Positions 3,593 through 53,241 of a stretch of DNA of 59,891 nt are shown in pieces. This DNA is from an uncultured Gammaproteobacteria bacterium. GTDB lineage: Bacteria > Patescibacteriota > Microgenomatia > UBA8517. The stretch's first letter is position 1. Every line of letters starts with the position of its first letter. The DNA lies in the NCBI GenBank assembly GCA_964494885.1, contig CAZBTH010000005.1, positions 29,277 to 89,167 on the forward strand, given 5' to 3'. A model generated the notes under the pieces. The model saw nothing but the letters and a program-made list of their open reading frames with translations. It did no database searches and was not told the DNA's origin. A program made the translations under genes and the position numbers.

Positions 3593-3752
3593 AAAAAGAA
3601 TATTTAAAGACAGTTCCAAAACACAGAACAAAGAATAAATAATTCGAGACTTTGATTGCCAATCCGGCGTGACCTAAAAACAAAATGGCTCCTATTCCAA
3701 CAAGACCTAAAAAGCATAATCCCAAAATTCCCATTGCAATAATTTTCATCAT
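3585..3752 (-). CDS. Small hydrophobic protein (about 2 TM), hypothetical
   Basis: ORF 3585..3779. An internal ATG at 3752 gives MMKIIAMGILGLCFLGLVGIGAILFLGHAGLAIKV... It fills the gap between two co-oriented genes and has no recognisable family. Confidence 0.35.
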   Translation of the reverse strand: MMKIIAMGILGLCFLGLVGIGAILFLGHAGLAIKVSNYLFFVLCFGTVFKYSFYE

Positions 3753-7613: not shown

Positions 7614-7620
7614 ACATAGG

Positions 7621-37173: not shown

Positions 37174-37947
37174 TTAACTTGTTATCCAATTTTTTCTATT
37201 AACATCATCATAGTAATGAAGAATTTTTAGTCTGTAAAAAACCGCCGCTGTATCCCAAGCCATCCAAAAAGAAGTTGACCATTTTATCGCGCTATTTGAT
37301 TTATTAAATCGAACCTCTATCGGAGCTTCGAAGATCCTGTTGAAGCCCAGATATTTAGCAACCGAAAGCATTTCAATATCCATTGCATAACTCTTAACCA
37401 AAAGTCTGGGGAGAATTTTCTCAACCACTTTCCTTTTAAATATTTTTATTCCGCTTTGAGTATCCGTAAGAGAAAGATTAAAAAGAAGCTTAACGCCAAC
37501 ATGATAACCCAAACTCAAGATTTTTCGTAAGAGAGGATAATTAACACGGGAAACAGGGTGTTTTTTTGATCCCACTATTATGTCTGCATCATACCAATTC
37601 ATGTGCGCCAAAAGCATCATTATTCCTTTTGGACTTATATCCATTCCGGCATCTAAAAAGGATATTATTTCACCTTTAGCTTTTCCCATTCCAAAACGTA
37701 CGGCATGACCCTTGCCTTTATTAACTTTGTAAGTAAACACTTTCAATTTTGAAGATTTAATTTTTGACGCCTCCCGAAAAGTTTTGTCCATGTCGCCATC
37801 CACAACACAGATCACCTCAAAGTCGTAGTCCCTCCCCAACCCTTCTCCCAATGTTGATAAAATATTATCCAAATCCTGCCTGATGGTTTTCTCCTGTTTA
37901 TAGGCGGGGACAATTACTGAAAGAATTTTGATCTTAGGCTTTTCCAT
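37174..37947 (-). CDS. Glycosyltransferase family 2 (GT-A)
   Basis: LSVIVPAYKQEKTI, ICVVDGDMDKT and SFLDAGMDISP. The track ORF extends to 38094, but that extension lies inside the upstream flippase. ATG 37947 (MEKPKIKILSV) gives a 14-nt overlap. Confidence 0.85.
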   Translation of the reverse strand: MEKPKIKILSVIVPAYKQEKTIRQDLDNILSTLGEGLGRDYDFEVICVVDGDMDKTFREASKIKSSKLKVFTYKVNKGKGHAVRFGMGKAKGEIISFLDAGMDISPKGIMMLLAHMNWYDADIIVGSKKHPVSRVNYPLLRKILSLGYHVGVKLLFNLSLTDTQSGIKIFKRKVVEKILPRLLVKSYAMDIEMLSVAKYLGFNRIFEAPIEVRFNKSNSAIKWSTSFWMAWDTAAVFYRLKILHYYDDVNRKNWITS

Positions 37948-39208
37948 ATTGTTTTCTTTTGGCCAGGCCATACCGCGAAGTATATCCCAAAAAAACGCCT
38001 TCACCAAAAAGCATGAGGGTGCATATGGCAAGCGATACCTGAATAACCTCCAGAATACTTGAATGAAAAATCCATAACAATATTGCTTGTCCAAACGCAG
38101 CTAATACCGGAAATACTATTATTCGCGTTTTTCCAAGAGAAAGTGAAAAATTTACCAACAATAGAGCAAGGGTGTATACCAGCATAAAAAGGCCCATCCA
38201 GACCAGATCTCTTGAGGCTGCCAGATAGGCCGACCCGTAAAGAATATTGATTGCAAAATCTGAGAATAAGTAATAAATTCCAACTGCGGAACCCGAAACA
38301 AATAACGTTAGTCCAAGCGACCCCCAAAATATTTTCAGATACCCCTCCCCTTTGGCGCTCCTGCCGGCAACGACAGGAAACATTACGGAAGATATTGGAG
38401 AGGATGCAAAAAATATTATTTTTCCAAGCGTAGAAAGAGCTGCGTAGATTCCGGCATCGAAAGGGGTTAAGAAATGTTTAACAAGAATTACATCTGTTGT
38501 AAAGATTGAAGTAAACGCCAAAGCTTGTAAAAAAACAGGTAGTGAATATTTCAGAAAAGGTTTTAAATTGTATTTATTTTTAAGTTTTTTTGTTTTTTTG
38601 ATATCCCTTACGTACCACTTTGAAACAAAATATGCCAAGAGCCCACCGGCAAACACACCAATCATTGCACCGAATACGGAATAACCCATGATAACCAAAA
38701 TTACACCCAAACAAATTTTTGTAAGTGAGGAAGTAAAATTAGGTAAAACAAATCCCATAAATTTCAATAAACCCTGTGCTGTGGCTTGGTTTACCAGGGT
38801 AATTAACGACAAAAATAAAACCGGTGTTATAAGTATAATAAGAAAGATGTTGTTAATATGTAAAAAGTTGGCAATAAAGGGAGAGGCAAAAATTGTAAAC
38901 AATGAAAGAATCGATGCCATCTTAAGCACAACTTTGCTCAACGAGCTAAAAATGGTTGCGACTTCTGTTGAGGACTTTCCGGATGAAATAAACTTCACAA
39001 TAGATACTGACGTTGAGGTTGGAACAATTCCCACAATATACAAAATGGAGAAAAGGCTGGCAAGGACACCGTAATCAACCGGGCCGAGAATACGGCCCAT
39101 AACCAGATGGTAAACGTAATTTACCACATTGATGGCCATGCTACCGCCAATCATTATGGCGCTGCCTGAAAAAAGCGGGTGACTAACTAATTTCTTGAGT
39201 TTTTTCAT
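37934..39208 (-). CDS. Wzx-like oligosaccharide/polysaccharide flippase (MOP superfamily)
   Basis: About 12 TM, with an N-terminus MKKLKKLVSHPLFSGSAIMIGGSMAINVVNYVYHLVMGRILGPVDYGVLAS typical of polysaccharide biosynthesis (Wzx/RfbX) proteins. Confidence 0.85.
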   Translation of the reverse strand: MKKLKKLVSHPLFSGSAIMIGGSMAINVVNYVYHLVMGRILGPVDYGVLASLFSILYIVGIVPTSTSVSIVKFISSGKSSTEVATIFSSLSKVVLKMASILSLFTIFASPFIANFLHINNIFLIILITPVLFLSLITLVNQATAQGLLKFMGFVLPNFTSSLTKICLGVILVIMGYSVFGAMIGVFAGGLLAYFVSKWYVRDIKKTKKLKNKYNLKPFLKYSLPVFLQALAFTSIFTTDVILVKHFLTPFDAGIYAALSTLGKIIFFASSPISSVMFPVVAGRSAKGEGYLKIFWGSLGLTLFVSGSAVGIYYLFSDFAINILYGSAYLAASRDLVWMGLFMLVYTLALLLVNFSLSLGKTRIIVFPVLAAFGQAILLWIFHSSILEVIQVSLAICTLMLFGEGVFLGYTSRYGLAKRKQYGKA

Positions 39209-40035
39209 TTATTTTTAGTTAATGTCAACTTGAGTCCGTCTTTTATAGACGTAAAGAGATTCGTATTAATCCCCAACTTTTTTAATCCAATTGTACTTGC
39301 CTTACTTCGCCTAATTTCATTTCTGGACTCCAAATACTTAACAGCGTAAGGTTTACCAACAATTTTTCCGACAAATTTTGCCAAATCCAAAATTCTAATT
39401 TCCTTTCCCGTTCCAAGATCTACAGACCCCACCGGCACCTTAGCCGTTAGCATCACCTCAACCGCCTTAGTAACATCATCAATAAAGATAAAATCTCTTG
39501 TTTGGTTGCCGTCGCCGTATATCTCTATTTCGCCAATTTTTCTTATACCTTTATAAAAGTTGTGTATGGCATAGCCATATGCAGGATTCTGGCCTTTGCC
39601 GTAAATATTAAACGGTCTTAAAACTACCGTTTCGATCCGGTCCTTATATGAAGTTGCTATCGCCTCTTCAAAAACCTTTGAAGCGCCGTATGGTGTAAGA
39701 GGTTTTCCGTATACTGCCGCTGAGGAAAAAAAGATAATCCGTTTTACTTTATTTCGGATGGCGGCGTCAATTACTTTAAACGTTCCAATGCCGTTATTCA
39801 TAAAATAATCCAACGGTTTTTCCCACGATTCGTTTCCGGAAACATAAGCCGCAAGGTGTATAACAACCTCTACGTTTTTGAGATTGCTATTCAATAATTT
39901 TGTATCGAATATATCTTTTCCATCTTTGACATCAAACCCAACAATTTTATGTTTTTTTGACAACGAGCGCGACAAATGAGTCCCAACAAAACCTTTTGAA
40001 CCGGTAATTAATATTTTCATATTTAAGCTATCCAA
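39205..40035 (-). CDS. NAD-dependent nucleotide-sugar epimerase/dehydratase (short, extended SDR)
   Basis: ILITGSKGFVGTHL and YGASKVFEE (YxxxK). ATGA overlap with the upstream gene. Confidence 0.85.
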   Translation of the reverse strand: MDSLNMKILITGSKGFVGTHLSRSLSKKHKIVGFDVKDGKDIFDTKLLNSNLKNVEVVIHLAAYVSGNESWEKPLDYFMNNGIGTFKVIDAAIRNKVKRIIFFSSAAVYGKPLTPYGASKVFEEAIATSYKDRIETVVLRPFNIYGKGQNPAYGYAIHNFYKGIRKIGEIEIYGDGNQTRDFIFIDDVTKAVEVMLTAKVPVGSVDLGTGKEIRILDLAKFVGKIVGKPYAVKYLESRNEIRRSKASTIGLKKLGINTNLFTSIKDGLKLTLTKNK

Positions 40036-41168
40036 TATCCTCTAACAAAAAGCGTTGTCAATATTATCCCTAATCCAACTGATGCAAGAATAAAAGGCGT
40101 GACATATTTACTAAACCGGGTAATTAAGTATGGAAAAAGAAACACCACCGACACAAGAGCATACCTTGGCATCGAGGAAAATGTACCGGTCAAGGTCGGA
40201 AGCAAAAGTGTGCTTAGAGAAAAAAACCAATAACTAAATCTCATCTTCTTAAAAAAGACTATCAAAGTTGTAAGAGGAATTATAGTAAATACAAATTCAA
40301 TAAATGCATTAAAAAACGGCAAGGTCAAAATGCTTGTCGTCAAAAATATTTTTATATATCTATAAATTACCTGAGGGAAAAGGATTATTTCCGTGCTACT
40401 TCTCCCAGCCCCAAATACCGGTTGTGCAGTTAAAAAATAAAACGTGTCATTGAAAGTCACGTTAAGGAAATACATATAGACAAAAAGGCCTAACGGTGTA
40501 ATCAAAGTCCAAATATAGTTTATTTTGTTCCTACTTTGAAACACCTCTATCAAATACAACGGGATAAGAAGCGCCCCTGTGATCCTTGTTGCCGTCGCAA
40601 GGGAAATCAGAATTGCTCCCCAAAAAAAATTTCCCTTTCTAATAAGGTAGATTGAAGAAACTGTCAAAAGCAAAAACAAACTTTCGGTATATATGGCACC
40701 AAAGAAAAATGAAGTTGGAAATACCAAAAGAAAAACGACGGTTAAAAAAGCTGTATCCTTTTTAAAATCAATATTAATTAACTTAAATAAAACATAAAGT
40801 GCACCTAAAAAAAATAAGTTAGTAAGAATTATCCCTGAATAAAAAAAGGCGGGGTCGGTGAAAAAAATGGTGTCAAGATTTGCAACTCTAGGGAAAATAA
40901 ATGAAAAAAATCGAATTAAGATTGGAAAAAGCGGGAAAAAAGCCTGGGAATATTGGGCAAGATAACCATCCTGCGCAATCCGAAGGTAATGGACTCCATC
41001 AAAATTTCCAAAGCCCCAAATCCAGTTTGGTAAATGGGTAATCTCCAACACCTTATCCACATAAGGAAATCTGGCACCGAAAACCGGTAAAAAATAGATC
41101 GATAAAAACGCAACAAAAAAAAGAGCTACACGCCAAATCAAAAACGAGGTCAAAATCTTTTTAAACAT
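40023..41168 (-). CDS. GT-C membrane mannosyltransferase-like protein (PIG-V / Mannosyl_trans2-like)
   Basis: FGNFDGVHYLRIAQDGYLAQYSQAFFPLFPILIR matches the FDG..Y..IA..GY....AFFPL signature of the PIG-V-like family, and there are about 9 TM. ATG 41168 (MFKKILTSFLIW) is preferred over the track start at 41303, which lies inside the upstream GT4. Confidence 0.8.
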   Translation of the reverse strand: MFKKILTSFLIWRVALFFVAFLSIYFLPVFGARFPYVDKVLEITHLPNWIWGFGNFDGVHYLRIAQDGYLAQYSQAFFPLFPILIRFFSFIFPRVANLDTIFFTDPAFFYSGIILTNLFFLGALYVLFKLINIDFKKDTAFLTVVFLLVFPTSFFFGAIYTESLFLLLTVSSIYLIRKGNFFWGAILISLATATRITGALLIPLYLIEVFQSRNKINYIWTLITPLGLFVYMYFLNVTFNDTFYFLTAQPVFGAGRSSTEIILFPQVIYRYIKIFLTTSILTLPFFNAFIEFVFTIIPLTTLIVFFKKMRFSYWFFSLSTLLLPTLTGTFSSMPRYALVSVVFLFPYLITRFSKYVTPFILASVGLGIILTTLFVRGYWIA

Positions 41169-42222
41169 TTTCGTACACTTTCCAAGTTTCCTTGGCGGTT
41201 TTTTCCCATGAGTAAGTCCTGGGGAGTTTTTTATTGATATTGGGATTTGATATTGCTTTCGATAGTGATACTGCATCGAAATCACAATACGAAAATTCAT
41301 CACCCATTACTTCTACCATACACTGTGACCTGACTAACACAATCGGGGTTTTGCAAGAGACTGCCTCAACCGCAGGCAATCCAAAACCCTCATATATTGA
41401 AGGTTGAATGTAAACACTAGCTAAATTGTAAATCTTAACAAGATCGTCGTCCGGCACAAAACCCAATCTAGTAACATTTCTGTCATCTACTAATTTACGT
41501 AAATTTTCCAAATGAGAAAGTTGAGGATGAGATCTTCCAAATATTTTCCTTGCCACGTCTTGCGGGCCATTGGGAACCTGTTGTGTTAACTGCTCAATAT
41601 CTTTAGCTTGTTTTCCAACAATAACTAGAGGGGTGCCACACAATTGACAAGCTTTTATTAAATTTGGAATATTTTTGTTGTAATTTATGTCGCCCACGTA
41701 AAGTGCAAACTTTTTAGGAAGGTTATATTTCACTACAATACTATATAGTATTGTAGTGTTTGTAATTTTCTTAAACATGTCACGAGGAGCAAGGTGTGTT
41801 ACGAAAACTTTTTTAGGGTCTATTCCCAAAAACCTGCAAATGTCTTTTTTTGAAGTCTCGGATATGGTTAAAATCGCATCAACATTCTTTTTGATAAAGT
41901 ATTTATTCAATGTCCATCTAATTCCACCCCTAATTCCGGACGGATAATGTGCGGGGTAAATGAGTGGAATAAGATCGTAAATGGTTAAAATAAACTTCGT
42001 ATTTTTTGGTTTTGTAAAAGGGACAGAAATTATGTATGGGTTGAATGAAGTGAAATGGATTAGATCGAATTTGGAAAACTCCTTACTGTTAAAATCGTTG
42101 TCTAATACGCTAAATTTTTTATTACCTTTTTTAAATGCATCAACTAGCTCCCTGGTATAAACACCAATCCCACGAACAGAGTCTCCCGAGACAAGTGGTC
42201 TGGCATCAATCGCAACTTTCAT
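41161..42222 (-). CDS. Glycosyltransferase family 4 (GT-B)
   Basis: MKVAIDARPLVSGDSVRGIGVYTRELV and QPSIYEGFGLPAVEAVSCKTPIV (E-x7-E). A strong SD (AAGGAGG) lies 7 nt upstream. Confidence 0.9.
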   Translation of the reverse strand: MKVAIDARPLVSGDSVRGIGVYTRELVDAFKKGNKKFSVLDNDFNSKEFSKFDLIHFTSFNPYIISVPFTKPKNTKFILTIYDLIPLIYPAHYPSGIRGGIRWTLNKYFIKKNVDAILTISETSKKDICRFLGIDPKKVFVTHLAPRDMFKKITNTTILYSIVVKYNLPKKFALYVGDINYNKNIPNLIKACQLCGTPLVIVGKQAKDIEQLTQQVPNGPQDVARKIFGRSHPQLSHLENLRKLVDDRNVTRLGFVPDDDLVKIYNLASVYIQPSIYEGFGLPAVEAVSCKTPIVLVRSQCMVEVMGDEFSYCDFDAVSLSKAISNPNINKKLPRTYSWEKTAKETWKVYENV

Positions 42223-42956
42223 AAGTTTTCCTCCTTATACCCTTCGGGGTAAAATTCAATTTCAGTAGGACTGCCCCTATCGATAGTCGCATCAACTATT
42301 TTTTCAGATACAGATTCCGGAGTAAGATATTGCTTTCCTGCCCTTTGAAGATCTGCTCTATGATCAATTCCACCGTTTCCGAAACTTGTCATAACACTTC
42401 CCAACGTTAAAAGTTGAAATTTGATTTTTCCATCTTTAAATTCTTTTGCCAACGAAAGAGTTAGTCCCCGCAAACCGAATTTTGAAGTACAATAGGCTGA
42501 TCTACCGGCTGTAGGAAACACCCCCATGCCCGATCCTATGTTAAATACCAAAGGATTGTCTGACTTTTGGAGTAGAGGTATAAGTTTTTTCGTTAGATAA
42601 AATGGTGCAGTTAAGTTTAAACCGATAGAAAGGTTCCAATCTTCAACTGTCAGATCTCCGATTTTTTTATAAATTCCCGTTCCAGCAACATTATATAAAA
42701 AATCAATTTTGTCATGTTTCGTAAAAACGTCGCTGCAAAATTTCTCAATTGCGGATATGTCCGTTAAATCTACTGAAAAATACTCACCTTTATTTTCACG
42801 AACCATTTCGGCCAAATTAGAATTCGGGCTCTCGTGCATATCAACCATAACACAGAAAACTCCTTTTTCCGTTAGCTTTTTAACTAACGCACTACCAATT
42901 CCTCCCCCTGCGCCGGTAACTATCGCTATTTTGCCGTTTATTTCATTTGTTTCCAT
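42219..42956 (-). CDS. Short-chain dehydrogenase/reductase (classical SDR)
   Basis: IAIVTGAGGGIGSALVKKL (TGxxxGxG), NIGS and YCTSKFGLRGL (YxxxK). Confidence 0.9.
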   Translation of the reverse strand: METNEINGKIAIVTGAGGGIGSALVKKLTEKGVFCVMVDMHESPNSNLAEMVRENKGEYFSVDLTDISAIEKFCSDVFTKHDKIDFLYNVAGTGIYKKIGDLTVEDWNLSIGLNLTAPFYLTKKLIPLLQKSDNPLVFNIGSGMGVFPTAGRSAYCTSKFGLRGLTLSLAKEFKDGKIKFQLLTLGSVMTSFGNGGIDHRADLQRAGKQYLTPESVSEKIVDATIDRGSPTEIEFYPEGYKEENL

Positions 42957-43830
42957 TTGTAATATATTTATAATAGGCTACCGGAAAGTGTATTGACGAG
43001 AAAAATGCCCACAAAAAGCCCTGGGGGCCATCCAATAAACCCTTGTGACGGAAATAGATGTTCAAAAATATATATAGGGGTTTGTACATAGTATATAGGA
43101 ACAAACTCCAAAAATTTTTAGGGACTTTATCCTCATTCAGTTCTTTTGCTTTCAGATCGGTGTAGCGGTTAAGCCTTGAAAGATAACGTCTCATTGTAGG
43201 GGAATCATAGTGTTTTAGATCGTTAAATAGCCAAGACACTTCCCCATCTATTTGAATTTGCTCATGAACAGACTTTTGCGGAAAACGCGCCTTCCCATTT
43301 TTGACCAAGCGAATAACTCCGTCAGGGTAAACTCCTCCGTATCTCAACGGGCGTCCCAAAAAAATATTAAGACGAGGTATAAAAAACGCGACAACTTCTC
43401 CGGTTTCCTGACCGATTTTTCCATCACGCGCTTCAATCAAACGTTGGTGTTTTTTCTGACGAGACGTCACGCGGATATCCAAATCGAGTCTCTTTTTAAT
43501 ATCATCATTCGACATATTTATTACTTCATTTATTTCCTTAGCTAGGGCCGGGGTCACTTCTTCGTCGGCATCAAGCTGCAGTACCCAATCCCCAGTAGCT
43601 CTCTCCAGAGCTTTTTGCTTGGTTATATGGAAGATATCGTGGTGTTGTTCAAGAAAAACTTTAGCCCCGTATTCATTTGCGATTTCTACCGTTTTATCCG
43701 TGGAGTGTTCATCTACCACAACAATCTCATCGGCAATTTCCTTAACCGATTCAAGGCAGCGACCGATGTTTTCTTCCTCGTTTCTGACAGCGAGGACTAC
43801 GCTTAATTTAGGTGAACTGTTATCTTTCAT
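42943..43830 (-). CDS. Glycosyltransferase family 2 (GT-A)
   Basis: LSVVLAVRNEEENIGRCLESV, VVVDEHSTDKT and LQLDADEE. Confidence 0.85.
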   Translation of the reverse strand: MKDNSSPKLSVVLAVRNEEENIGRCLESVKEIADEIVVVDEHSTDKTVEIANEYGAKVFLEQHHDIFHITKQKALERATGDWVLQLDADEEVTPALAKEINEVINMSNDDIKKRLDLDIRVTSRQKKHQRLIEARDGKIGQETGEVVAFFIPRLNIFLGRPLRYGGVYPDGVIRLVKNGKARFPQKSVHEQIQIDGEVSWLFNDLKHYDSPTMRRYLSRLNRYTDLKAKELNEDKVPKNFWSLFLYTMYKPLYIFLNIYFRHKGLLDGPQGFLWAFFSSIHFPVAYYKYITNGNK

Positions 43831-45404
43831 TATTTATATTTTTTCCCCTCTACAAGGAAAAATGCGTCGGATCCATCAGGGTATTTTACCAGTTTTTTTA
43901 CATCAAAATAGTCTTTAAACCTCAAACCACTATAAAAGCTGGGTGTAATTGTATATAAAATTCCAGGAGAAGGATAACTTTCTATTGGGTCCCAATTGCC
44001 AAAATTGTATTTACCAAAGGAGGAAACAGTGTTAAAACTATTGGACTGACTTAGATCATACCTCACAGTGCTTAAGAATAACGGCAGTGGAACTCTTAAA
44101 TAGTACAAAAAGAATATATAGGGTTGCTGACGAACTTTATCTACAAAAACTTCGGTATATTCAGGGTGTTCAAGGGCATAAAGTGCCGATTGTTTCATAC
44201 CATATTGCCACTCGATCGCCTCAGCGACAGAATACCGGGTTAAATAATAAACAATATAGTTTTTCACCTCGAGGCTTAAAAACAAAACTATCACGACTGA
44301 TACGGCAACTTTTAACCATTTTTTCCTGAATATTTCAACCACTCCGGCAGCTCCACTAGCTGAAAGAAGTAATATTGGTCCCATTATAAAAATGCTTCTT
44401 GTGGCATGAGGAGTTAACGACGAAACCGCTCCCGGAATTGGAGACACTAGCAGCCACGAAACCAAAAAGAATAAGGTCTCCCATCTTTTCTTTACCAAAA
44501 TCATAAGTAATCCAACTATGGATAGTATTAGATCGATTTTGTAGAATTCCCCTATCACCTTGACCGAAGCTCTCGGACTGGTGTCCCCTGTTTGAAACAG
44601 ATATGAATAAGTAAAATATTCCTTGTAGTTATGTAAAATAATGTTTGCCTTTCCACCGTACTTGTTAACCACCTCCTCGGAGAACTTAGTTTGGTTTATT
44701 CTGGCAAACCCCAAAATCCTAGAATCCATAATAACCAGCCCTGCAAAAAACAATACAATTGAGGCAGACAAAATCAAAATTTTTTTGTTTCTGAGAAAGC
44801 CTTTAATATGAATCAAACAAAGAAGAAGAATAATTGGAGGAACAATTATTTCGGCCGATTGGTAAGCGAAAATACTTATTCCCCAAAATAGAAATGAAAA
44901 AGGAACCAACCATTTTGCCTTTGTTAAACCCAGATAAAATATGGCAGTACCAGCCAAGAAGAAAAATAAGGCAAAATTAGCTTCCCATAGGCCTCTCGAA
45001 TAATGGATTGCGTACGGGGAAACTGCCATAAACAGAGCGGCGAAAAGACCTGCGACTTCATTTTTAAAAAGCATCTTTGCCAAAAGGTAAATCGCGAAGA
45101 TGCTCAAAACCCCAACAGCTGCACTACTTGCCCTGGTATTGTAATCTGAAATTCCAAAAGATTTATACACCAAGGCAGTCAGATAAATATGAACCGGATG
45201 TTTATCATCTCCAAATGATCTGAAAACCAACGGGAACTCCGCCCCGTATTCATCCTCTCCCCAATTTACGATTGTCCAAGCATTGTACCCAGCCGCAACC
45301 TCATCCCAATTAAGTGATGGTGGAATTTGATCAAGTTTGTAAAATCTTAAAATGCCTCCCAAAATAACAATTAAAACCAAAAATAGAAGAGATAATTTTT
45401 TCAT
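43830..45404 (-). CDS. GT-C membrane glycosyltransferase (ArnT/PMT, GT39/83-like), tandem paralog 1 of 5
   Basis: The first loop is LNWDEVAAGYNAWTIVNWGEDEYGAEFPLVFRSFGDDKHPVHIYL, followed by about 11 TM and a C-terminal soluble ~130 aa containing RQQPYIFFLYYLRVP. Confidence 0.9.
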   Translation of the reverse strand: MKKLSLLFLVLIVILGGILRFYKLDQIPPSLNWDEVAAGYNAWTIVNWGEDEYGAEFPLVFRSFGDDKHPVHIYLTALVYKSFGISDYNTRASSAAVGVLSIFAIYLLAKMLFKNEVAGLFAALFMAVSPYAIHYSRGLWEANFALFFFLAGTAIFYLGLTKAKWLVPFSFLFWGISIFAYQSAEIIVPPIILLLCLIHIKGFLRNKKILILSASIVLFFAGLVIMDSRILGFARINQTKFSEEVVNKYGGKANIILHNYKEYFTYSYLFQTGDTSPRASVKVIGEFYKIDLILSIVGLLMILVKKRWETLFFLVSWLLVSPIPGAVSSLTPHATRSIFIMGPILLLSASGAAGVVEIFRKKWLKVAVSVVIVLFLSLEVKNYIVYYLTRYSVAEAIEWQYGMKQSALYALEHPEYTEVFVDKVRQQPYIFFLYYLRVPLPLFLSTVRYDLSQSNSFNTVSSFGKYNFGNWDPIESYPSPGILYTITPSFYSGLRFKDYFDVKKLVKYPDGSDAFFLVEGKKYK

Positions 45405-46765
45405 CGATTTGTAAATTGAAAGCCGTCAAATGAAGCCACTTTTGAAAATCCCCAGTTACCGACAGGGTTTAGTTTGACTTCTTCCCTGAATTTTTCCGGA
45501 GGATATTTTAAATAGTAAAGAGCAAAAATGTATGGCTGGGCATATCTATCCGTAACAAAACCACTTCTTTGTTTCTCAAAAATCTGCTTATATTCAAACT
45601 GCCAAGCACTGGCACTTTGTGTAGGATATTTGACAATAAAATCCTGAATATAAAATTCGAAGAATAGATAGTAGGCAATCACAGCAGCCGAGAAAATTAC
45701 AACACCAAATTTTTTGAAATTATCTTTCAAGAAATACACTCCAAAGGCAGAAATAATTGAAAAAGACGGAGCTGCCAGAAGAGCACGAAGAGCGTGGGGA
45801 GATTCTTTGGTAAGGGCGGCAGGGATCGGTGCCAAAAGCAACATTACCAAAGGAATAAAGTAGAATATTTTTTTGCTCTTAAAAATCGCAAATAGACCGA
45901 TAAGAATTAGGGGTAGCTCAAACCAATAAAGCTGCCCATGTCCCGGAATTTGACTCCTGGGATTCGTATCCCCTGTTGTAAAAAGGAATTTGGGGCTTAA
46001 GTGAAAAAAATAGTTTTTAACAAAATCCGTTTTACCGGTTATTTCTACCTGGGCAAATCGTGCTCCTCCCGTGTCATATTTATATAATCTGTAAACAGGT
46101 ATGAGACTTAATCCGAAAAGCAAAACTGAGATTAAAATTGGAAACAAATTTTTCTTTAATGCAGCTATATTATGAAATTTATATATAAAGAGAATTGCCA
46201 ACCAAATAGGAACAATTATCCGAAAAGAATTATAACTATAGAACGATAAGATAAATCCGATTACCGAGACAGAGATCAAATATCTGTTTTTATCGATGAA
46301 AAGAAACAGATAGGTGGAGAGCAAAAAGAAAAAGAGTCCGGCGGTGGCTTCGTAGCCGGTCCTCGAAAATATAAAAAACCAAGGTGAAAAACTAAGGATA
46401 AAAGCGGAAAGAATCGCTGTTCCTTCTTTGCCTGTAATTTTTTTGACAAGCCAGTAAACAATGATAAGAGTTCCCAAAGAATATAAAACGGCAGGAAGTC
46501 TGACCGCATATTCATTAAGCCCGATCGCTTTTACAAAAACAACTACGCTATAAATATAAACCGGAAGTTTAAATTCTCCGAAAGCGCGGAAATGTAAGGG
46601 TAATTTATCTCCCCACTCGTCTTTTAGGTCGGTCGCGATCGAATACGCGTTGTAGCCGATCGAGGCTTCATCCCAATAAACCGATACCGGAATTTCGGCT
46701 ATCTTATAAAGCCTGGAAACCAGAAAAAGAAATAATACAAACGCAAGGATTAAATTATTTCGCAT
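45401..46765 (-). CDS. GT-C membrane glycosyltransferase (ArnT/PMT-like), tandem paralog 2 of 5
   Basis: VYWDEASIGYNAYSIATDLKDEWGDKLPLHFRAFGEFKLPVYIY, and YAQPYIFALYYLKYPPEKF near the C-terminus. Confidence 0.9.
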   Translation of the reverse strand: MRNNLILAFVLFLFLVSRLYKIAEIPVSVYWDEASIGYNAYSIATDLKDEWGDKLPLHFRAFGEFKLPVYIYSVVVFVKAIGLNEYAVRLPAVLYSLGTLIIVYWLVKKITGKEGTAILSAFILSFSPWFFIFSRTGYEATAGLFFFLLSTYLFLFIDKNRYLISVSVIGFILSFYSYNSFRIIVPIWLAILFIYKFHNIAALKKNLFPILISVLLFGLSLIPVYRLYKYDTGGARFAQVEITGKTDFVKNYFFHLSPKFLFTTGDTNPRSQIPGHGQLYWFELPLILIGLFAIFKSKKIFYFIPLVMLLLAPIPAALTKESPHALRALLAAPSFSIISAFGVYFLKDNFKKFGVVIFSAAVIAYYLFFEFYIQDFIVKYPTQSASAWQFEYKQIFEKQRSGFVTDRYAQPYIFALYYLKYPPEKFREEVKLNPVGNWGFSKVASFDGFQFTNR

Positions 46766-48425
46766 TTTTTTCTACAACTTCGAAAGCCCGATTGCCATTA
46801 AGGAAATCGACAATCAAAAGTCTGGGCAAATTATCGGAAAAATCTCCCTGTTTACCAATAAACAATATTTTCTTCCCCGGATTGGCATTCACAATATCCT
46901 GATAACGGGTACCGGTATCTCCCAGATCGGGAAAGTAAAACTTATCAAACTTCAAAACCCATATCCACTGATAGGCTTCAAAGCGATCCAAATTAGGATC
47001 ATCCCGATAACTTCCCGGGTTCCAGTTCAGAAAAAAGAGGGTAAACATATGGGGTTCGCCATAAGCCCGACTGAAAACAATTAAATCGTAATTTTGGTAA
47101 TTATCTTTTACGAAAGACGCAACTTGTCTGTAACCATATTGCCAATCACGGGAATAAAACACAGGGTAATTATTATAATAATTGTTCAAATAACCTTTAA
47201 AACCAATCAGCAAGAATATTGCCGAAATCGCAACAATTATCCAACCCAAATATTTTTTTCTATTGAAAAATATGAATGTTTCGTAGAAACCAAGTGCTGT
47301 AAATATCTGATAAGGAATAATCGCCAGAATTGTTCTTAGAGCATTCGGAATACTATCTACAGTTGCCGCGACAGGGATAAATACCAAAAGCAACCAAGAA
47401 ACAAGAAGCCATCTCCATTTATTCTTACTTCTAAAAATGAAGTACAGACCAATCAAGATAAAGGGGGCCTGAATTGCATAAAGTTCCCCAATTCCCTGAA
47501 CATGGTGTTGTTTATGCCCTGCGCCATTTATAAAAAGAAAGTCGGGGGTAAAATGGCTCAGATAATTTCCTGTAAACACATAAACATAATGCGTAACTTT
47601 GTTATGAATGAGGCGCGGCAAGGGCTCAGGAAAGTGAGTACTGCCCCTTGCCTGATTCACTCTTTGTACAAAGCCGTGATCGTCTGTAATGCTTACGAGT
47701 TTTAGTCTGGCAGTTGCTTGTCCACTTATCATAAAGATTGCAAGCGGAATCATTGAGATAATAAAAATCGAAAGTCCCAGAATAAAGATCCTGAAATTCT
47801 TCAGGATTTCTTTTCGATAAATTATTAACAAGGTAAAAAGAAACAGCGGTGTAAAAACTCTGGCGGCATTATATGTATAAATTGAAATGATGAAAGGGAG
47901 TATCGACCATAGCCAATATTTTTTTTGTTTAAAACCGCGAGCAAAAAGCCATGCACCAATTACCACCCAAAAAACAGAAAAACTAGATTCGAATGAAGCC
48001 CTTGTCAGCTGTATATGCCAGGGGGATATTGCTAAGAGAAAAGAAGAAATGACGGCGATCCAATCATTTTCAAATAGTTCTTTTGTCAAAAAAAACAGGA
48101 ACAAAATAGTCAAAACTCCATAAATGATCGGCGTAATCCTGACACCAAATTCGTTGAGGCCGAATATTGCAATCGCCGGAATTGAGGCGTAAATCTGAGC
48201 CGGAAGTTTATATTCACCGTAAGCTTTAAAATGAACAGGCATGAATTTGCCCCATTCGTCTCTGCCGGTTTTGAGAATTGAATAGGCATTGTAACCGATT
48301 GAAACCTCATCCCAATTAAGTGCAGGGGGGTCTGATGTAACTTTGTAGAACCTCAAAGCAAAACCCAAAAGAACAACCAGCACCAAAGCGATTAATGCGA
48401 TTTTATCCTCTAATATTTTGAACAT
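46755..48425 (-). CDS. GT-C membrane glycosyltransferase (ArnT/PMT-like), tandem paralog 3 of 5
   Basis: LNWDEVSIGYNAYSILKTGRDEWGKFMPVHFKAYGEYKLPAQIY, and YGEPHMFTLFFLNWNPGSY near the C-terminus. Confidence 0.9.
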   Translation of the reverse strand: MFKILEDKIALIALVLVVLLGFALRFYKVTSDPPALNWDEVSIGYNAYSILKTGRDEWGKFMPVHFKAYGEYKLPAQIYASIPAIAIFGLNEFGVRITPIIYGVLTILFLFFLTKELFENDWIAVISSFLLAISPWHIQLTRASFESSFSVFWVVIGAWLFARGFKQKKYWLWSILPFIISIYTYNAARVFTPLFLFTLLIIYRKEILKNFRIFILGLSIFIISMIPLAIFMISGQATARLKLVSITDDHGFVQRVNQARGSTHFPEPLPRLIHNKVTHYVYVFTGNYLSHFTPDFLFINGAGHKQHHVQGIGELYAIQAPFILIGLYFIFRSKNKWRWLLVSWLLLVFIPVAATVDSIPNALRTILAIIPYQIFTALGFYETFIFFNRKKYLGWIIVAISAIFLLIGFKGYLNNYYNNYPVFYSRDWQYGYRQVASFVKDNYQNYDLIVFSRAYGEPHMFTLFFLNWNPGSYRDDPNLDRFEAYQWIWVLKFDKFYFPDLGDTGTRYQDIVNANPGKKILFIGKQGDFSDNLPRLLIVDFLNGNRAFEVVEKNAK

Positions 48426-48438
48426 ATTGTTTGTAGTA

Positions 48439-49908
48439 CTATTTTCCTAAAACCAAAAAGTGCCAAAAAAATGGAAAATACATCCTTGAGAGCGGGGTCG
48501 TCGAGACCATTGGACAAGTTTTACTTTGGCACTCGAGTTCATAAGCATTGTAAATATATTTAATATTAAACCACATTCCGGTAGCAACTATTACCACAAT
48601 AACCAAACGGGATATTACTTTAAGCCAGTCCTTGTTAAAAATTGTATCAGCCAAAGACGGCAGCATTAATGACGAAAAAACAGTTCTATATGTTAACGTC
48701 TCAACCCTGGGCCTAAAAGCATTAACAAGAAGCATCCTGTTGCCAAGTAGCATTCCGGCCGCAAAAAAAGTGGTAAAAAAATCAGCTTTCTTGACCAAAT
48801 ACTCTATTCCCCAAGCCCCCAAAATCGCCAAAAACGGATAACTGGGGTATCTGTACCACGCAAGGAGGTCGCTTTCCCCTCCTGTAAACATCACAACAGC
48901 AACCGAGAAGATAAAGGGGATTGTAACAAACCGTTGAATACCTTCTTTTGCAGTAAAGATAAAATAAACGGCAGATATTAAACAAAACACAAACCAACTG
49001 TCCCGAAAAACAACAGTATCAACCCCGGGTGTAATAAAATACCACGCTAAACTTCCGAACCCCGTAGGACGTTGAGATTGAACACCGTAAATAATTTTAA
49101 AAATCTCCGCATCGTAATGCATACCGTATAGAAAAAACGCAACAATAAAAGGAATGCTGGCTATAATCAGATACAAACAATACCTAATAGCCGTTTTGGT
49201 TTTGCCGATTTTGTAGAGTTTTTCGAATGTAAAATACAAGGCCAGTAGGATAAGTAAATAACCGGTAGGTTTAGATAGTCCCGCAATACCGGCAACTAAA
49301 GGTATCGGCGCAATGTACCAAAAATTTGGTTTTTGCCAAAATAGCATTAATAGATAAACCATAAGAGTTAGCAAAAATGCAATCAAGGTTTCCGGCATCG
49401 CCAGTCTTGCAGCAAAAACCATAATCGGCACTGTTCCGTAAATAAGCATTGCCAAAACACCCCGCCAAAACCCCCCGATTTTTTTCGCAATCAGGAAAAT
49501 AAAGATTGACGTAAGCGTACTTATTAAAACCGTGGGTATTCTTATATACGAAGACGGGATAAAGTCATTCCTGTTGGCTCCATATAAATGAGCAAACCAA
49601 CCCACCAAAAGCGAAAAAAGTGGCGGTTCATCAAGCCATGGCTTATAAAGTGTAACCGATGCTCTGGGGGAGCCACCCTTATAATTAACCTCTCCTTTAT
49701 AGACCTCTGAACGGACAGGATACGGAAGTGTAGACCACGAAACAGGCACCCCCGTTTCAACCAAGTTTATTCCGCTCCAAGCATACAATTGTTCATCCAA
49801 GTGGTTAGCGGTGGGAACTCTTTCATAATTGTGGGCTCGGAGAATAAAGGTAAATATCAAAACTATTAAAAAAAGGGCCGTTTTAAAAAGGGGTAGTTTA
49901 TTTAGCAT
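48439..49908 (-). CDS. GT-C-like polytopic membrane glycosyltransferase (more divergent member of the tandem array)
   Basis: The first loop is NHLDEQLYAWSGINLVETGVPVSWS, followed by about 12 TM. It has no large soluble domain. Confidence 0.8.
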   Translation of the reverse strand: MLNKLPLFKTALFLIVLIFTFILRAHNYERVPTANHLDEQLYAWSGINLVETGVPVSWSTLPYPVRSEVYKGEVNYKGGSPRASVTLYKPWLDEPPLFSLLVGWFAHLYGANRNDFIPSSYIRIPTVLISTLTSIFIFLIAKKIGGFWRGVLAMLIYGTVPIMVFAARLAMPETLIAFLLTLMVYLLMLFWQKPNFWYIAPIPLVAGIAGLSKPTGYLLILLALYFTFEKLYKIGKTKTAIRYCLYLIIASIPFIVAFFLYGMHYDAEIFKIIYGVQSQRPTGFGSLAWYFITPGVDTVVFRDSWFVFCLISAVYFIFTAKEGIQRFVTIPFIFSVAVVMFTGGESDLLAWYRYPSYPFLAILGAWGIEYLVKKADFFTTFFAAGMLLGNRMLLVNAFRPRVETLTYRTVFSSLMLPSLADTIFNKDWLKVISRLVIVVIVATGMWFNIKYIYNAYELECQSKTCPMVSTTPLSRMYFPFFWHFLVLGK

Positions 49909-51316
49909 TGTCTATTCTCACGTTTCCATAGATTTTCGGAAAAGTTCCATATTGCTTAATAACTAAATTGGGGTCGACTTTCGCATAGACCTCATATGCG
50001 TACTCAATATTGTCAATCTTTTTTGTTGATAAAGTAATCACCTTGCCGTTGTCTTTATTATTAATTGCCGATAAAGATGCAATTTTGGCCTCGTAAGACC
50101 AAAATGAAGCAAATTTACCGGGTGCTAAAAAGTAGACCCTTTGCAGCACAAAAACCGATTGGATTAATATAATAGCAACAAAAAAATAAGCTAATTTTCT
50201 TGAAAGATTCGAAAGTGCATACGAAGTTATGAGAATAAAAGGAGGAAGCATTAGAGCGTTCCTTAATCCGTGAGCCTGACCCAAAAACATGGTTGCAAGC
50301 GGCGTAATTAGGATCCACGCTCCTACCAAAACTAACTTTCTCTTTTCTCTATTCCAAAGAGTAATTAGCCCAATTAGAAGAAGTGGAAGTTCAGCCAAAT
50401 AAAACATTCCCCATTCCCCGGGATTATGAACCGGATTCCCATCCCCTCTCAAATATAAAAATTTTGGTGAAAGATTCTCTGTGTAAACGTCCAAAAGTAT
50501 ATGGAAATATTCGAACGGTTTATTGAAAAAAACAGGCTTTAGTAATACGGGAAGTGTCGAGAATGTCCTTTCAGCATTATTCAGCTGAATTATTTGTTCC
50601 CGAATATTCATATCAGATAATATATTTATCGTTAAAAACCGTCGTTCACTTAACCCCTTGAATGTCTCGTTAATTGTCAAACCACCAAAAACAACAAGGA
50701 TAACAACCGAAGCAATGAAAAATTTATTTCTAATTACTTTCTTAAATCCCCCAAACCAAATTAGAACAAAAAACATTAAAGGCAGAGTTAATTTAAAGGT
50801 GGGATATGTAAAGATTGTGAGTCCCCAAGCAATTGCCCAGAGGATATATTTTTTGTAAAGGTAAGAGACTATACCTAAAAGGGCCAAAAATAGGGCAAAA
50901 TGCGCTTCAAAACCACCACGAGCAAGGTATATGTCCCAAAGAGAAATCGAAGTGATAAAACATGCGATCAATCCTGTTTTTTCATTAAACAATTTCTTTC
51001 CCAGGAAATACATTAGGGCTATTATTCCCAACGAAGAAAGAATGGATAAGCTCCTTACCCCCCACTCCGTAGGACCAAAAAGATATACAAAAGGAACAGA
51101 TGCATAAATATACCCTCCAGGGCGCCCTGACCCCATCTGAAATGTGACAGGTAACTTTGTACCTGTGGAGTCCATGCCGGTTTTCATTATGGAATAGGTG
51201 TCTAGTGCAATTGTCAGTTCATCGCCGTACATGGGGAGGGCTGTAATTCTATAAATCCTGAGAATCAATCCCATGATTACTATTCCGAGAAGAATAAGAA
51301 TGGATTTGCGGACCAT
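49898..51316 (-). CDS. GT-C membrane glycosyltransferase (ArnT/PMT-like), tandem paralog 5 of 5
   Basis: MYGDELTIALDTYSIMKTGMDSTGTKLPVTFQMGSGRPGGYIY aligns with the WDE...G.DE.G...P..F loop of the three paralogs downstream. The track start at 51337 is TTG. ATG 51316 (MVRKSILILLG) is preferred. Confidence 0.85.
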   Translation of the reverse strand: MVRKSILILLGIVIMGLILRIYRITALPMYGDELTIALDTYSIMKTGMDSTGTKLPVTFQMGSGRPGGYIYASVPFVYLFGPTEWGVRSLSILSSLGIIALMYFLGKKLFNEKTGLIACFITSISLWDIYLARGGFEAHFALFLALLGIVSYLYKKYILWAIAWGLTIFTYPTFKLTLPLMFFVLIWFGGFKKVIRNKFFIASVVILVVFGGLTINETFKGLSERRFLTINILSDMNIREQIIQLNNAERTFSTLPVLLKPVFFNKPFEYFHILLDVYTENLSPKFLYLRGDGNPVHNPGEWGMFYLAELPLLLIGLITLWNREKRKLVLVGAWILITPLATMFLGQAHGLRNALMLPPFILITSYALSNLSRKLAYFFVAIILIQSVFVLQRVYFLAPGKFASFWSYEAKIASLSAINNKDNGKVITLSTKKIDNIEYAYEVYAKVDPNLVIKQYGTFPKIYGNVRIDNAK

Positions 51317-51336: not shown

Positions 51337-53241
51337 ATGGAGAAAATACTAATGGGAAGCATAGTGGGTTTTGTTGCTTTCACTTCGATCTCCTATATTT
51401 TGATAGTTTTAAATGTCCCCTTTTTAATCATTCCATTTACCGTTCTCGGAGTAGTTTTTGCATACAGGCCGTTAGTCGGAACGGTTAGACAGATCAAATT
51501 CAGGTGGAACGCGCAAACTTGGCTGATTTTGGCTGTTTTTGTCATTGGAATTTTAGGACAACTTGCAGTAATTTCCCCAAGCGGTGTTTTCCAAAACGGC
51601 AATTTGGTTTTTTGGTCGGCTCACGGTCACGACGGTGTGTGGCATATAGCTCTTATGGAAGAATTCAAAAAAGGATACCCCTTTCAAGACCCGTCATTTG
51701 CGGGTGAGAAACTTGTTAACTACCACTTTTTCTCCGACATTGCCCCTGCTATGGTTTCCAAGTATCTACCAATTTCGGATCTTGATTTATATTTCAGGAT
51801 ATTTCCGTTAATTTATTCAATATTCCTTGGTGCTTCCGCTTTTTATCTGACCAGAAAGATCACAAATAGTTTTAGCGCTTCTCTTTGGGCTACTGTTTTT
51901 ACATATTTTGCAGGAAGTTTCGGGTTCATTGTCACCTACTTAAAAAATAAAACAATCGGCGGAGAAAGTATTTTTTGGGCGACACAACCTCAAAGTTCAA
52001 GCGGAAATCCGCCTCAAATTGTTTCCAATTTCCTCCTTTTAACTTCCCTCTATTTTTTAATCACATATTTGCAAAAAAAGAAAAGTAAATTGATGTTTGC
52101 AATTTGTGTACTTCTAATAGGAACCGTTTCCGCTTTCAAAATATATGCAGGTGTAGTCCTCCTGGGTGCCCTAGGAATAGCCGGTCTTTGGCAATTAATC
52201 AGAGATCATAATTTCGGATTACTTTTGATAACTTTTTTCAGTGGGATATTGGCGGCACTTTTGTATTTCCCCAATTCCTCCGGCTCGACCTCTTTTTTGA
52301 TATTCCAACCTTGGTGGTATATAAGAACAATGGTGGTAGAACCGTCACGATTAAATCTAATCGACTGGGAACTTAGACGTCAAACATATATTTCGGTCGG
52401 TAGAATTACTTCTTATTTAAGAGTAATTCAACTTGAAGGAACGGCATTTTTGATATTCTTTTTTGGTAATCTTGGTATGCGTTTCCTCGGGCTTTGGGAC
52501 ATGGTCAAAATGTCAAAAAATTCTTTAAAAAATTATTTCAATTTAATGTTTGTACTTATTATCGTTATTTCTTTAATACTACCGTTACTATTCTTGCAAA
52601 AAGGCGTTGCCAGCAATACCAGCCAATTTTTGCAATACTTTGTATTACTTTTTGGAATATTGGCAGGAATAACAACTGCGAAAATACTGTCAAAGGTGAA
52701 GACACCGATACGCATTATAGTTACTGCCTTAATGATACTGATGACAATTCCTACTCAAGCCGGACTCTTGTATGAATTTTACGGACCCCTAAATCACCCC
52801 AGATCCCCCTTCGCTCAAATTACTAAGGAGGAGCTGATTGCTCTAAAATTTATAAAGGAAAACACTGCCGATAGCGATGTCATAATAACCCCTCCATACA
52901 ACCAATACCTTAACTTGGGGGGGTCTACACCAAATATTTGGGACTGGTTCGACACATCATATATTGCTGCTCTATCAGCACGAAGAACTTATATGGACGA
53001 TTACGAACAAGCAGACATCATGGGGTATGATTACAAACCGAGACTGGAGATAAAAAAGATAATATTTGAAAGTGATAATAGCACCGAAGTTAAAGCTGCT
53101 TTAGCCAAAACAAATGCTAATCTAATTTATTTCCCTATAGCAGAAAAGCCAAAAGTTAATCTGAATGAAATCGGTCTATCTATGGTTTTTGAAAACCAAA
53201 GCGTGCAGATTTGGGATACAAAAATACACAAAAATTATTAA
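51337..53241 (+). CDS. Polytopic membrane protein, 'DGVWH' family, paralog of 56710..58356; putative GT-C-like
   Basis: AHGHDGVWHIALMEEFKKGYPFQDPSFAGEKLVNYHFFSDI aligns with LARDGVWHEALVGQLLGGVPPQNPGFAGQVLTNYHYFFDI in the paralog. About 14 TM, then a ~150-aa C-terminal soluble domain ending FENQSVQIWDTK. Confidence 0.85.
   Translation: MEKILMGSIVGFVAFTSISYILIVLNVPFLIIPFTVLGVVFAYRPLVGTVRQIKFRWNAQTWLILAVFVIGILGQLAVISPSGVFQNGNLVFWSAHGHDGVWHIALMEEFKKGYPFQDPSFAGEKLVNYHFFSDIAPAMVSKYLPISDLDLYFRIFPLIYSIFLGASAFYLTRKITNSFSASLWATVFTYFAGSFGFIVTYLKNKTIGGESIFWATQPQSSSGNPPQIVSNFLLLTSLYFLITYLQKKKSKLMFAICVLLIGTVSAFKIYAGVVLLGALGIAGLWQLIRDHNFGLLLITFFSGILAALLYFPNSSGSTSFLIFQPWWYIRTMVVEPSRLNLIDWELRRQTYISVGRITSYLRVIQLEGTAFLIFFFGNLGMRFLGLWDMVKMSKNSLKNYFNLMFVLIIVISLILPLLFLQKGVASNTSQFLQYFVLLFGILAGITTAKILSKVKTPIRIIVTALMILMTIPTQAGLLYEFYGPLNHPRSPFAQITKEELIALKFIKENTADSDVIITPPYNQYLNLGGSTPNIWDWFDTSYIAALSARRTYMDDYEQADIMGYDYKPRLEIKKIIFESDNSTEVKAALAKTNANLIYFPIAEKPKVNLNEIGLSMVFENQSVQIWDTKIHKNY

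Follow-up and report, generated by a model that had tools for sequence, protein, structure and literature searches.

Five adjacent PMT_2-type GT-C glycosyltransferase genes in a Microgenomatia glycan island: a conserved C-B-A core and predicted extracytoplasmic transfer steps

Results

A row of five overlapping or abutting genes

The DNA analyzed here is a 59,891-nucleotide (nt) stretch (the window; positions 29,277 to 89,167 of contig CAZBTH010000005.1, GenBank assembly GCA_964494885.1, GTDB lineage Patescibacteriota, Microgenomatia). At 43830-51316 it carries five consecutive minus-strand genes, named E, D, C, B and A from upstream to downstream (Table 1), which an earlier reading of the sequence (the original prediction) described as a head-to-tail array of ArnT/PMT-like glycosyltransferases of the GT-C type. 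Open reading frame (ORF) listing and translation confirmed the five genes and their close packing, with a spacing of at most 13 nt: E and D overlap by 11 nt, D and C are separated by a 13-nt gap, C and B overlap by 11 nt, B and A by 4 nt, and A overlaps the following GT2 gene by 1 nt. For gene E, we preferred the ATG at 51316 to the longest-ORF start, a TTG at 51337, because the TTG overlaps the ATG of the divergent gene F and an 89%-identical ortholog is called at 472 amino acids (aa).

The co-directional, mostly overlapping run of genes extends from the array to about 33713, an arrangement that suggests one long transcription unit as the likely organization from the array downward. A consensus scan gave no signal above shuffled controls for promoter-like sites (43 vs. 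57.9 expected), and none was judged to exceed them for terminator-like sites (24 vs. 16.7 ± 4.7), so operon boundaries were drawn from overlaps and strand only.

Table 1. Genes of the array and features discussed in the text (positions in the window; lengths in aa)
Feature	Coordinates	Strand	Length	Description
Gene E	49898..51316	-	472	PMT_2 GT-C glycosyltransferase; GDE in loop 1 (residue 31), GDGNP 291, HGLR 349
Gene D	48439..49908	-	489	PMT_2 GT-C, separate subfamily; LDE 37, LDEPP 92, loop-1 beta-hairpin 68-88, without C-terminal globular domain
Gene C	46755..48425	-	556	PMT_2/PMT GT-C; WDE 38-40, D56, K73, R96, E146, R240, R364; orthogroup-specific GAGHKQHH loop 301-308; C-terminal alpha/beta domain ~430-556
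Gene B	45401..46765	-	454	PMT_2/PMT GT-C; WDE 31, GDTNP 265, HALR 324, QPYIFALYYL 410
Gene A	43830..45404	-	524	PMT_2 GT-C; WDE 33, GDTSP 273, HATR 333, QPYIFFLYYL 427
GT2 glycosyltransferase	42943..43830	-	295	DAD motif, hydrophobic C-terminal segment; Pfam Glycos_transf_2 2.2e-20; fixed fourth member of the C-B-A module
Co-directional downstream block	37174..42956	-		Pfam/NCBIfam matches; overlapping junctions
SDR (short-chain dehydrogenase/reductase)	42219-42956	-		
GT4	41161-42222	-		
PIG-V-like GT-C	40023 to ~41168/41303	-		
Short epimerase	39205-40035	-		
Wzx-type flippase	37934-39208	-		
PpgS/PgfS-like GT2	37174 to ~37947/38094	-		
Gene F	51337..53241	+	634	Multi-pass membrane protein, 'DGVWH' family, no Pfam match; divergent from E
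Gene J	56710-58356			Paralog of F (32% identical, E-value 8e-79)
ArnC/GtrB-like polyprenyl-phosphate sugar synthase	27471..28415	+		~15 kb from the array; NCBIfam PRK10714

Family membership and predicted folds

All five proteins pass the gathering threshold of Pfam PMT_2 (PF13231; 26.1 bits), with scores of 46.2 (A), 30.5 (B), 41.3 (C), 49.5 (D) and 34.3 bits (E). The cut-off of Pfam PMT (PF02366) is also passed by B (25.0 bits, residues 10-174) and C (30.3 bits, residues 16-232), in both cases with the N-terminal part only. Composition-corrected BLASTP revealed A, B, C and E as mutual full-length paralogs, with 25-31% identity over about 420-540 columns and E-values of 2e-29 to 1e-67 (B vs. 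C 1.4e-67, B vs. A 1.9e-58, E vs. A, B or C 2e-29 to 6e-43). D showed no significant BLASTP similarity to A, B, C or E; comparison of the D profile with the A/B/C/E profile by hhalign returned a probability of 98.7% (E-value 3.6e-16, 343 columns), with the loop-1 Asp-Glu in register. By these comparisons, D is assigned to a different PMT_2 subfamily, tied to A/B/C/E at the profile level only. The alignable first loop predicted for four of the genes is present (WDE at residue 33 in A, 31 in B and 38 in C; GDE at 31 in E), as is the C-terminal motif predicted for three, which reads QPYIFFLYYL in A, QPYIFALYYL in B and EPHMFTLFFL (residue 457) in C and has no match in E or D.

AlphaFold2 models were built for C, using a 138-sequence alignment, and for D, while A, B and E were placed through their full-length identity to C. 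The C model (mean predicted local distance difference test score, pLDDT, 96.4; predicted template-modelling score 0.94) yielded 26 Foldseek matches in the PDB at E-values ≤1e-3, all of them GT-C enzymes. They include human and yeast STT3, archaeal AglB and bacterial PglB (E-values 2.6e-9 to 4e-5, TM-scores of about 0.5), ArnT (E-value 2e-7, TM-score 0.54-0.56), Pmt4 and ALG9/ALG12, and, more weakly, AftD, AftB, Emb and DPY19. For the D model (pLDDT 87.5), 23 matches were obtained at the same threshold with ArnT first, the best match being ArnT bound to undecaprenyl phosphate (5f15; E-value 1.8e-6, TM-score 0.52). The models thus place the array proteins in the GT-C_A class, Pfam PMT_2, and the resemblance to STT3, AglB and PglB reflects the common GT-C_A core. 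Pfam, the fold models and the conserved catalytic-loop residues described below agree with the ArnT/PMT-like GT-C identity originally proposed.

Several more specific identities were considered and rejected. NCBIfam returned no above-threshold family for any of the five proteins, and none matched an ArnT model at E-values ≤0.01; ArnT proper (GT83, the lipid A 4-amino-4-deoxy-L-arabinose, or Ara4N, transferase) was dismissed for lack of an equivalog match. PMT (GT39) proper was dismissed since the matches cover the N-terminal module of B and C only and no MIR or PMT_4TMC domain matched in Pfam at E-values ≤0.01, and STT3/AglB/PglB (GT66) proper since none of the five carries a WWD motif or matches PF02516. 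Agl23 (TIGR03663, archaeal flippase-activity-associated protein) is reached by A and C at 40.1 and 29.4 bits vs. a cut-off of 126.25, over the N-terminal 150-170 residues only. The five proteins are therefore GT-C_A/PMT_2 members but not ArnT, PMT or STT3 orthologs, given the absence of WWD, of MIR and of an ArnT equivalog match.

The orthologs are annotated in public records as 'glycosyltransferase family 39' or 'ArnT-like', and the A/B/C/E-type family comprises 9,781 clusters (50% identity) at E-values ≤1e-30. Used as single queries against PDB sequences, neither C nor D retrieved anything, and the D-family profile also found no match. The A/B/C/E family profile reached ArnT (5ezm) at an E-value of 3.2e-8 over about 160 residues, the sole solved structure reached by sequence, and these PDB sequence searches found no solved structure of the A/B/C/E-type family itself.

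Conserved residues of the putative active site

Three features mark active enzymes of the GT-C/PMT clan: a pair of acidic residues in the first external loop, a Lys (K85 in ArnT) in contact with the donor phosphate or the metal, and an Arg ahead of transmembrane helix (TM) 10 that touches the donor phosphate (PMC7801869). The acidic pair lies in the first outer loop after TM1 in all five proteins: A, B, C and E carry WDE or GDE within residues 31-40, and D carries LDE at 37. In C numbering, D39 is 87-100% and E40 88-100% conserved in eight of the nine orthogroups delineated below, and the ninth (O4) retains an acidic pair. Across 138 sequences from seven orthogroups, R25, P33, D39, E40, Y45, D56, P63, F66, Y79, G89, R96, E146, Y185, R240, L297, G313, G326, R364 and G379 are at least 90% conserved.

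A hidden Markov model alignment matches the family profile 'K.P..iY' with ArnT 'KPPFHMW', which puts K73 in the column of ArnT K85; this column holds Lys in 100% of A, B and C sequences and Arg in E. R364, directly before helix 366-387 of the C model, is 97-100% conserved in A, B, C and E and absent in D and O4. By homology, the Lys/Arg residues probably contact the donor phosphate. In the long loop after residue 297, the orthogroups differ specifically, with GD.NP in A, B and E and GAGHKQHH in C (H304 and H308 conserved), and such group-specific loop residues are what would be expected if the copies differ in substrate.

A composite row with a near-universal C-B-A core

A scan with the C-ortholog alignment, taking one genome per species, found 343 encoding stretches, and the comparisons below use the best 80 loci of these 343. 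ORFs were called in each locus and assigned by BLASTP to the window proteins, a tree was built of 408 PMT_2-like proteins from the 80 loci, and presence and order were counted in the 61 loci whose 10-kb flanks are complete. CP066686.1, the complete 1.08-Mb chromosome of a groundwater 'Candidatus Woesebacteria', is the nearest relative: its C ortholog is 90% identical and its gene order is identical from gene J to gene Y; the same five genes stand in the same order in the three closest genomes. The record titles of the 80 loci read Woesebacteria, Daviesbacteria, Shapirobacteria, Microgenomates and, in many cases, 'uncultured Gammaproteobacteria'. The last title (loci L010, L013, L014, L016 and many others, from co-assembly bins) does not fit the Microgenomates-type content of the loci or their 55-66% identity to Woesebacteria/Daviesbacteria orthologs, which suggests that it is wrong for those records.

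In the tree, C (81 tips from 79 loci, support 1.0), B (69 tips, 68 loci, 0.98) and A (76 tips, 69 loci, 0.99) form well-supported orthogroups. E is weakly supported (47 tips, 42 loci, 0.61), and D is a long-branched outgroup (24 tips, 21 loci, 1.0). Four more orthogroups, O1-O4, have no member in the window, giving about nine overall. C is present in 60 of the 61 loci, A in 57, B in 55, E in 36 and D in 19. B directly follows C in 49 loci and A directly follows B in 50, and the GT2 gene comes after A in 66 of 73 cases. Each 21.6-kb locus carries 2 to 9 PMT_2 copies (mean 5.4); three loci show exactly the order E-D-C-B-A and nine show E-C-B-A. Where no B-clade gene follows C (L022, L024, L038 and L039), a second A-clade gene occupies the slot (pattern 'C A A'), so that three genes are kept even without B.

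E adjoins an F-type gene in 37 of 41 non-edge cases (L002-L082; 28 divergent, 9 co-directional), which suggests that E and F function as a pair of their own, apart from the C-B-A core. The F-family profile aligns with the A/B/C/E profile (hhalign probability 95.2%, E-value 2.6e-8, 391 columns) and marks F as a remote GT-C relative; against PDB sequences it gave only chance matches to homeodomains. Judged from sequence and gene order, the row is a composite: a near-universal, ancient C-B-A-GT2 module, E coupled to F, and D as a sporadic insert from another subfamily. The array of five thus stands as to its genes but not as a single duplication series.

Age and selection of the copies

The proposal that these are old duplications and not an assembly artefact was borne out by the 25-31% identity among A, B, C and E, by orthologs for each copy, by the supported C, B and A orthogroups and by contigs that cross the junctions. 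Logan contigs from two separate groundwater samples tile the array at an even depth of about 6-11x and cross every gene junction, which independently argues against misassembly. Relative to the two closest genomes, the ratio of nonsynonymous to synonymous substitution rates (dN/dS) is 0.08-0.12 for all five genes (0.09-0.10 for E), similar to neighbouring genes. This purifying selection on each copy, together with the orthogroup-specific loop residues, supports the view that the copies are non-redundant.

D is less diverged than its surroundings. Its aa identity to the orthologs in the two nearest genomes is 96% and 93%, vs. 81-90% for flanking genes (88-90% in the nearest), and its dS is 0.28 and 0.52, vs. 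0.44-1.2 (0.44-0.70 in the nearest). Low divergence despite sporadic presence could come from recent exchange between strains or from unusually strong constraint.

Genomic neighbourhood

The order of the GT2 beside A, GT4, PIG-V-like, Wzx and PpgS-like GT2 genes is kept in most of the 80 loci. For the GT2 beside A, an identity as a clear polyprenyl-phosphate sugar synthase was rejected, since its NCBIfam matches are sub-threshold, cover the N-terminal ~100 residues and are split over many unrelated GT2 types. The SDR gene, which sits between the GT2 and GT4 of this conserved block, occurs only in some related loci, mostly Woesebacteria-like. DprE2 of mycobacteria modifies a lipid-linked sugar, and the SDR might act likewise. 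The longest ORFs of the PpgS-like GT2 and PIG-V-like genes overlap their upstream genes by 161 and 143 nt. Since their orthologs, at 257 and 381 aa, are shorter by 49 and 45 residues, the true starts are probably near 37947 and 41168. The ArnC/GtrB-like protein aligns with PRK10714 (undecaprenyl-phosphate 4-deoxy-4-formamido-L-arabinose transferase) at an E-value of 3.2e-51, over residues 4-301 vs. 5-299 of 316 and below the equivalog cut-off, and is a candidate maker of the lipid-linked sugar donor.

The whole window is a glycan-biosynthesis island that encodes GT2 and GT4 transferases, sugar-nucleotide dehydratases and epimerases, a DegT aminotransferase, a UDP-sugar dehydrogenase, an AsnB-type amidotransferase, FkbM and other methyltransferases, and two Wzx-type flippases (the one in Table 1 and one at 1-1110). 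Eleven GT-C-type genes from at least five families lie between 40023 and 59618 (19.6 kb): the PIG-V-like gene, A-E, F, J, G, I and K. G is PTPS_related/YfhO-like, I matches GT87, and K is a 31%-identical paralog of I with no Pfam match of its own. Three large multi-pass membrane proteins at 1061-3631, 4128-7637 and 12021-13646 (856, 1169 and 541 aa; 9-11 hydrophobic segments) have no Pfam match at E-values ≤0.001, and the first two have a short similar segment (43% over 63 aa, E-value 9e-7). These three may be further unclassified membrane glycosyltransferases or polymerases.

Discussion

We propose, with a rough probability of 0.7, that the five genes, which belong to a Woesebacteria-type bacterium, encode catalytically competent GT-C_A enzymes that carry out distinct extracytoplasmic glycosyl-transfer steps on one envelope glycoconjugate. 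Cytoplasmic-face GT2 synthases of the same island would make a polyprenyl-phosphate-sugar donor, which would then be flipped across the membrane. Each enzyme would take a single sugar from this donor and pass it to an acceptor at the external surface of the cytoplasmic membrane. The loop-1 Asp-Glu would form the catalytic centre, and the Lys (replaced by Arg in E and by Glu in D) and the late Arg would hold the donor phosphate. The GT4 and GT2 enzymes encoded nearby would assemble the lipid-linked precursor of the glycoconjugate, and the Wzx-type flippase would export it. Each ancient paralog would have its own sugar, linkage or acceptor step, and the product could be a lipoglycan, a polysaccharide of the wall or the glycan of a glycoprotein. 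In this scheme, the C-B-A core with its GT2 would be invariant, E would work with the GT-C-like F, and D would add an optional extra step.

The argument for distinct steps on one glycoconjugate comes from the long separate retention of A, B and C, the group-specific loops and the constant neighbours (GT2, GT4, PIG-V-like, Wzx and GT2). We place the Asp-Glu loop outside because basic N-termini precede TM1, in line with the positive-inside rule and GT-C precedent. The original prediction spoke of a periplasmic-face elongation line. Bacteria of the Candidate Phyla Radiation (CPR) are not known to have an outer membrane, and the site is better described as the external side of the cytoplasmic membrane. 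Elongation in sequence, as in mycobacterial lipomannan or arabinan synthesis, is plausible, and parallel decoration, protein O-glycosylation or a hetero-oligomeric C-B-A machine would fit the sequence data equally well.

Several observations weigh against this proposal. In the MAFFT alignment, the columns of K73 and R364 are occupied in D by Glu and Tyr, respectively, and its donor handling may differ because Glu replaces Lys at the column equivalent to ArnT K85. The GT2 fixed beside A has no clear polyprenyl-phosphate sugar synthase identity in NCBIfam, and the clear ArnC-like synthase lies 15 kb away from the array. Neither a priming phosphoglycosyl transferase nor a GtrA-type flippase was found within the 60-kb window, and none of the array gene words sampled occurred in metatranscriptome runs of the same groundwater study. 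More generally, the analysis shows the family, fold, active-site conservation, age, synteny and purifying selection of the genes, and we infer the donor type, the topology, the acceptor and the sequential or parallel order.

The copies upstream of C (D and E here, up to five others elsewhere) might instead form a serotype-like variable set of parallel side-chain decorators under phage- or host-recognition pressure. Copy number indeed varies from 2 to 9, and genomes whose C orthologs are only 74-80% identical to that of the window differ in what lies upstream of C. However, the variable copies belong to a few old orthogroups (E, D, O1-O4) with no recent lineage-specific duplicates, E is tightly linked to F, and the three closest genomes carry an identical five-gene order. 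D is found in 19 of 61 loci only, with a dS (0.28 vs. 0.44-0.70 for its neighbours) that would fit recent exchange. Known monoderm PMT_2 enzymes are single-sugar decorators behind serotype differences (PMC8035078), and we regard this explanation as possible, if on the doubtful side.

C, B and A could also be subunits of one obligate hetero-oligomeric GT-C machine, comparable to EmbA-EmbB or Pmt1-Pmt2, which would be compatible with the distinct-step proposal. The full catalytic residue set is present in A, B and C, and none of them resembles a pseudo-enzyme scaffold, which speaks against an obligate complex. The fixed C-B-A order, with direct adjacency in 49-50 of 61 loci, the maintenance of a trio in the four loci where a second A-clade gene fills the B slot, and the 11-nt C/B and 4-nt B/A overlaps, suggestive of translational coupling and matched expression, would all suit a complex, but CPR operons commonly show fixed order and overlaps with or without one. 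Heteromeric GT-C pairs (Pmt1-Pmt2, 6p25; EmbA-EmbB, 7bvf) do occur among the fold matches. On balance, we consider an obligate machine unlikely.

It seems less likely still that the five proteins are PMT-like protein O-glycosyltransferases, each with its own secreted or surface targets such as surface-layer proteins or pilins. The top fold matches (STT3, AglB, PglB, Pmt4) do glycosylate proteins, but ArnT scores equally well (TM-score 0.54-0.56). Similarly, B and C pass the Pfam PMT cut-off and public records carry the family 39 label, but the PMT matches are N-terminal only, and neither MIR nor the PMT C-terminal four-TM module nor WWD was detected. The fixed neighbours (Wzx flippase, GT4, GT2, PIG-V- and GT87-type GT-Cs) point to oligo- or polysaccharide assembly. 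Finally, similarity through TM composition bias or assembly duplication alone, for which D's missing BLASTP match to the others is the sole supporting point, is virtually refuted by BLASTP E-values down to 1e-67, conserved charged catalytic residues, separate orthologs for each copy, junction-crossing contigs from two samples and the 98.7% hhalign probability for D.

A more far-reaching version of the distinct-step proposal, which we think improbable, is that C-B-A(-GT2) is a lineage-defining extracytoplasmic assembly line of Microgenomatia for a never-described envelope glycoconjugate, with C, B and A as one hetero-oligomeric machine. Such a line would work with the variable upstream PMT_2 copies and the PIG-V-, GT87-, YfhO-like and 'DGVWH' genes, and its product might be a lipoglycan like mycobacterial lipomannan or lipoarabinomannan.

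The enzyme class, the chemistry and the general logic of such systems are already known, and without a product the present findings are an annotation-level advance; they would gain in interest only with proof that the product is an envelope polymer that defines the lineage. In the literature searched, we found no paper on the A/B/C/E-type family or on these arrays in CPR/Patescibacteria, nor a description of the conserved C-B-A trio and its expansion to up to nine copies in Microgenomatia. CPR genomes are about 1 Mb in size. If the genome here is of that size, as CP066686.1 suggests, spending a 60-kb island with at least 11 GT-C-type genes on surface glycans would be a very heavy investment, and the three-gene core is maintained across Woese-, Davies- and Shapirobacteria. 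The identity of the product would reveal the envelope make-up of uncultured, probably episymbiotic cells and what their hosts and phages meet.

Comparison with known systems

PMT1/2/4 (GT39) share with the array the loop-1 Asp-Glu, the PF02366 match (B and C), the fold matches to Pmt4 and Pmt1/2 and the GT39 labels of public records. The array proteins differ from them in size (450-560 aa vs. about 690-730 for solved full-length Pmt) and in having neither MIR nor the C-terminal four-TM module, and the fold alignments of the models to most Pmt chains cover about 260-300 columns only.

ArnT (undecaprenyl-phosphate-L-Ara4N:lipid A transferase, GT83; 5ezm/5f15) is the best fold match of D and among the best of C (TM-scores 0.52-0.56). 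It resembles the array proteins in its comparable size, multi-pass module (with a C-terminal outer domain in A, B, C and E), acidic first loop and a Lys that aligns with K85. In contrast, identity to ArnT is 11-16%, the sequence match spans about 160 residues only, no NCBIfam ArnT model is matched, and D is without the C-terminal domain. A lipid A acceptor is not to be expected in this lineage.

The embCAB genes of mycobacteria (arabinosyltransferases, GT53) are, like the array, a tandem co-directional trio of old GT-C paralogs, and Emb structures are among the fold matches. With a polyprenyl-phosphate sugar as donor, their products lengthen a polysaccharide of the envelope on the external side of the membrane, much as proposed here. 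Emb proteins carry large carbohydrate-binding outer domains. Unlike the array proteins, they are about 1,050-1,090 residues long in the solved chains; the array has no Arabinose_trans Pfam match and belongs to another organism and envelope.

In monoderm bacteria, PMT_2-type GT-C enzymes (GtlB, GttB, GacL, CsdD/F, GtsC) transfer sugars from C55-phosphate carriers to wall polymers outside the cell, decorating lipoteichoic acid, wall teichoic acid and wall polysaccharides (PMC8035078). These multi-component transmembrane glycosylation systems share PMT_2 membership with the array and follow a logic in which a GT-A synthase makes the C55-phosphate sugar, a GtrA- or Wzx-type flippase moves it across the membrane and a GT-C enzyme transfers it (PMC8035078). 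An ArnC-like synthase, a PpgS-like GT2, Wzx-type flippases and GT-C genes are all present in the island; of the two flippase types, the GtrA type, which such systems may use, was not found in this window. The clearest difference is one of number: those systems usually pair one GT-A with one GT-C enzyme, whereas here five PMT_2 genes stand in a row, with up to nine in relatives, among eleven GT-C-type genes in 19.6 kb.

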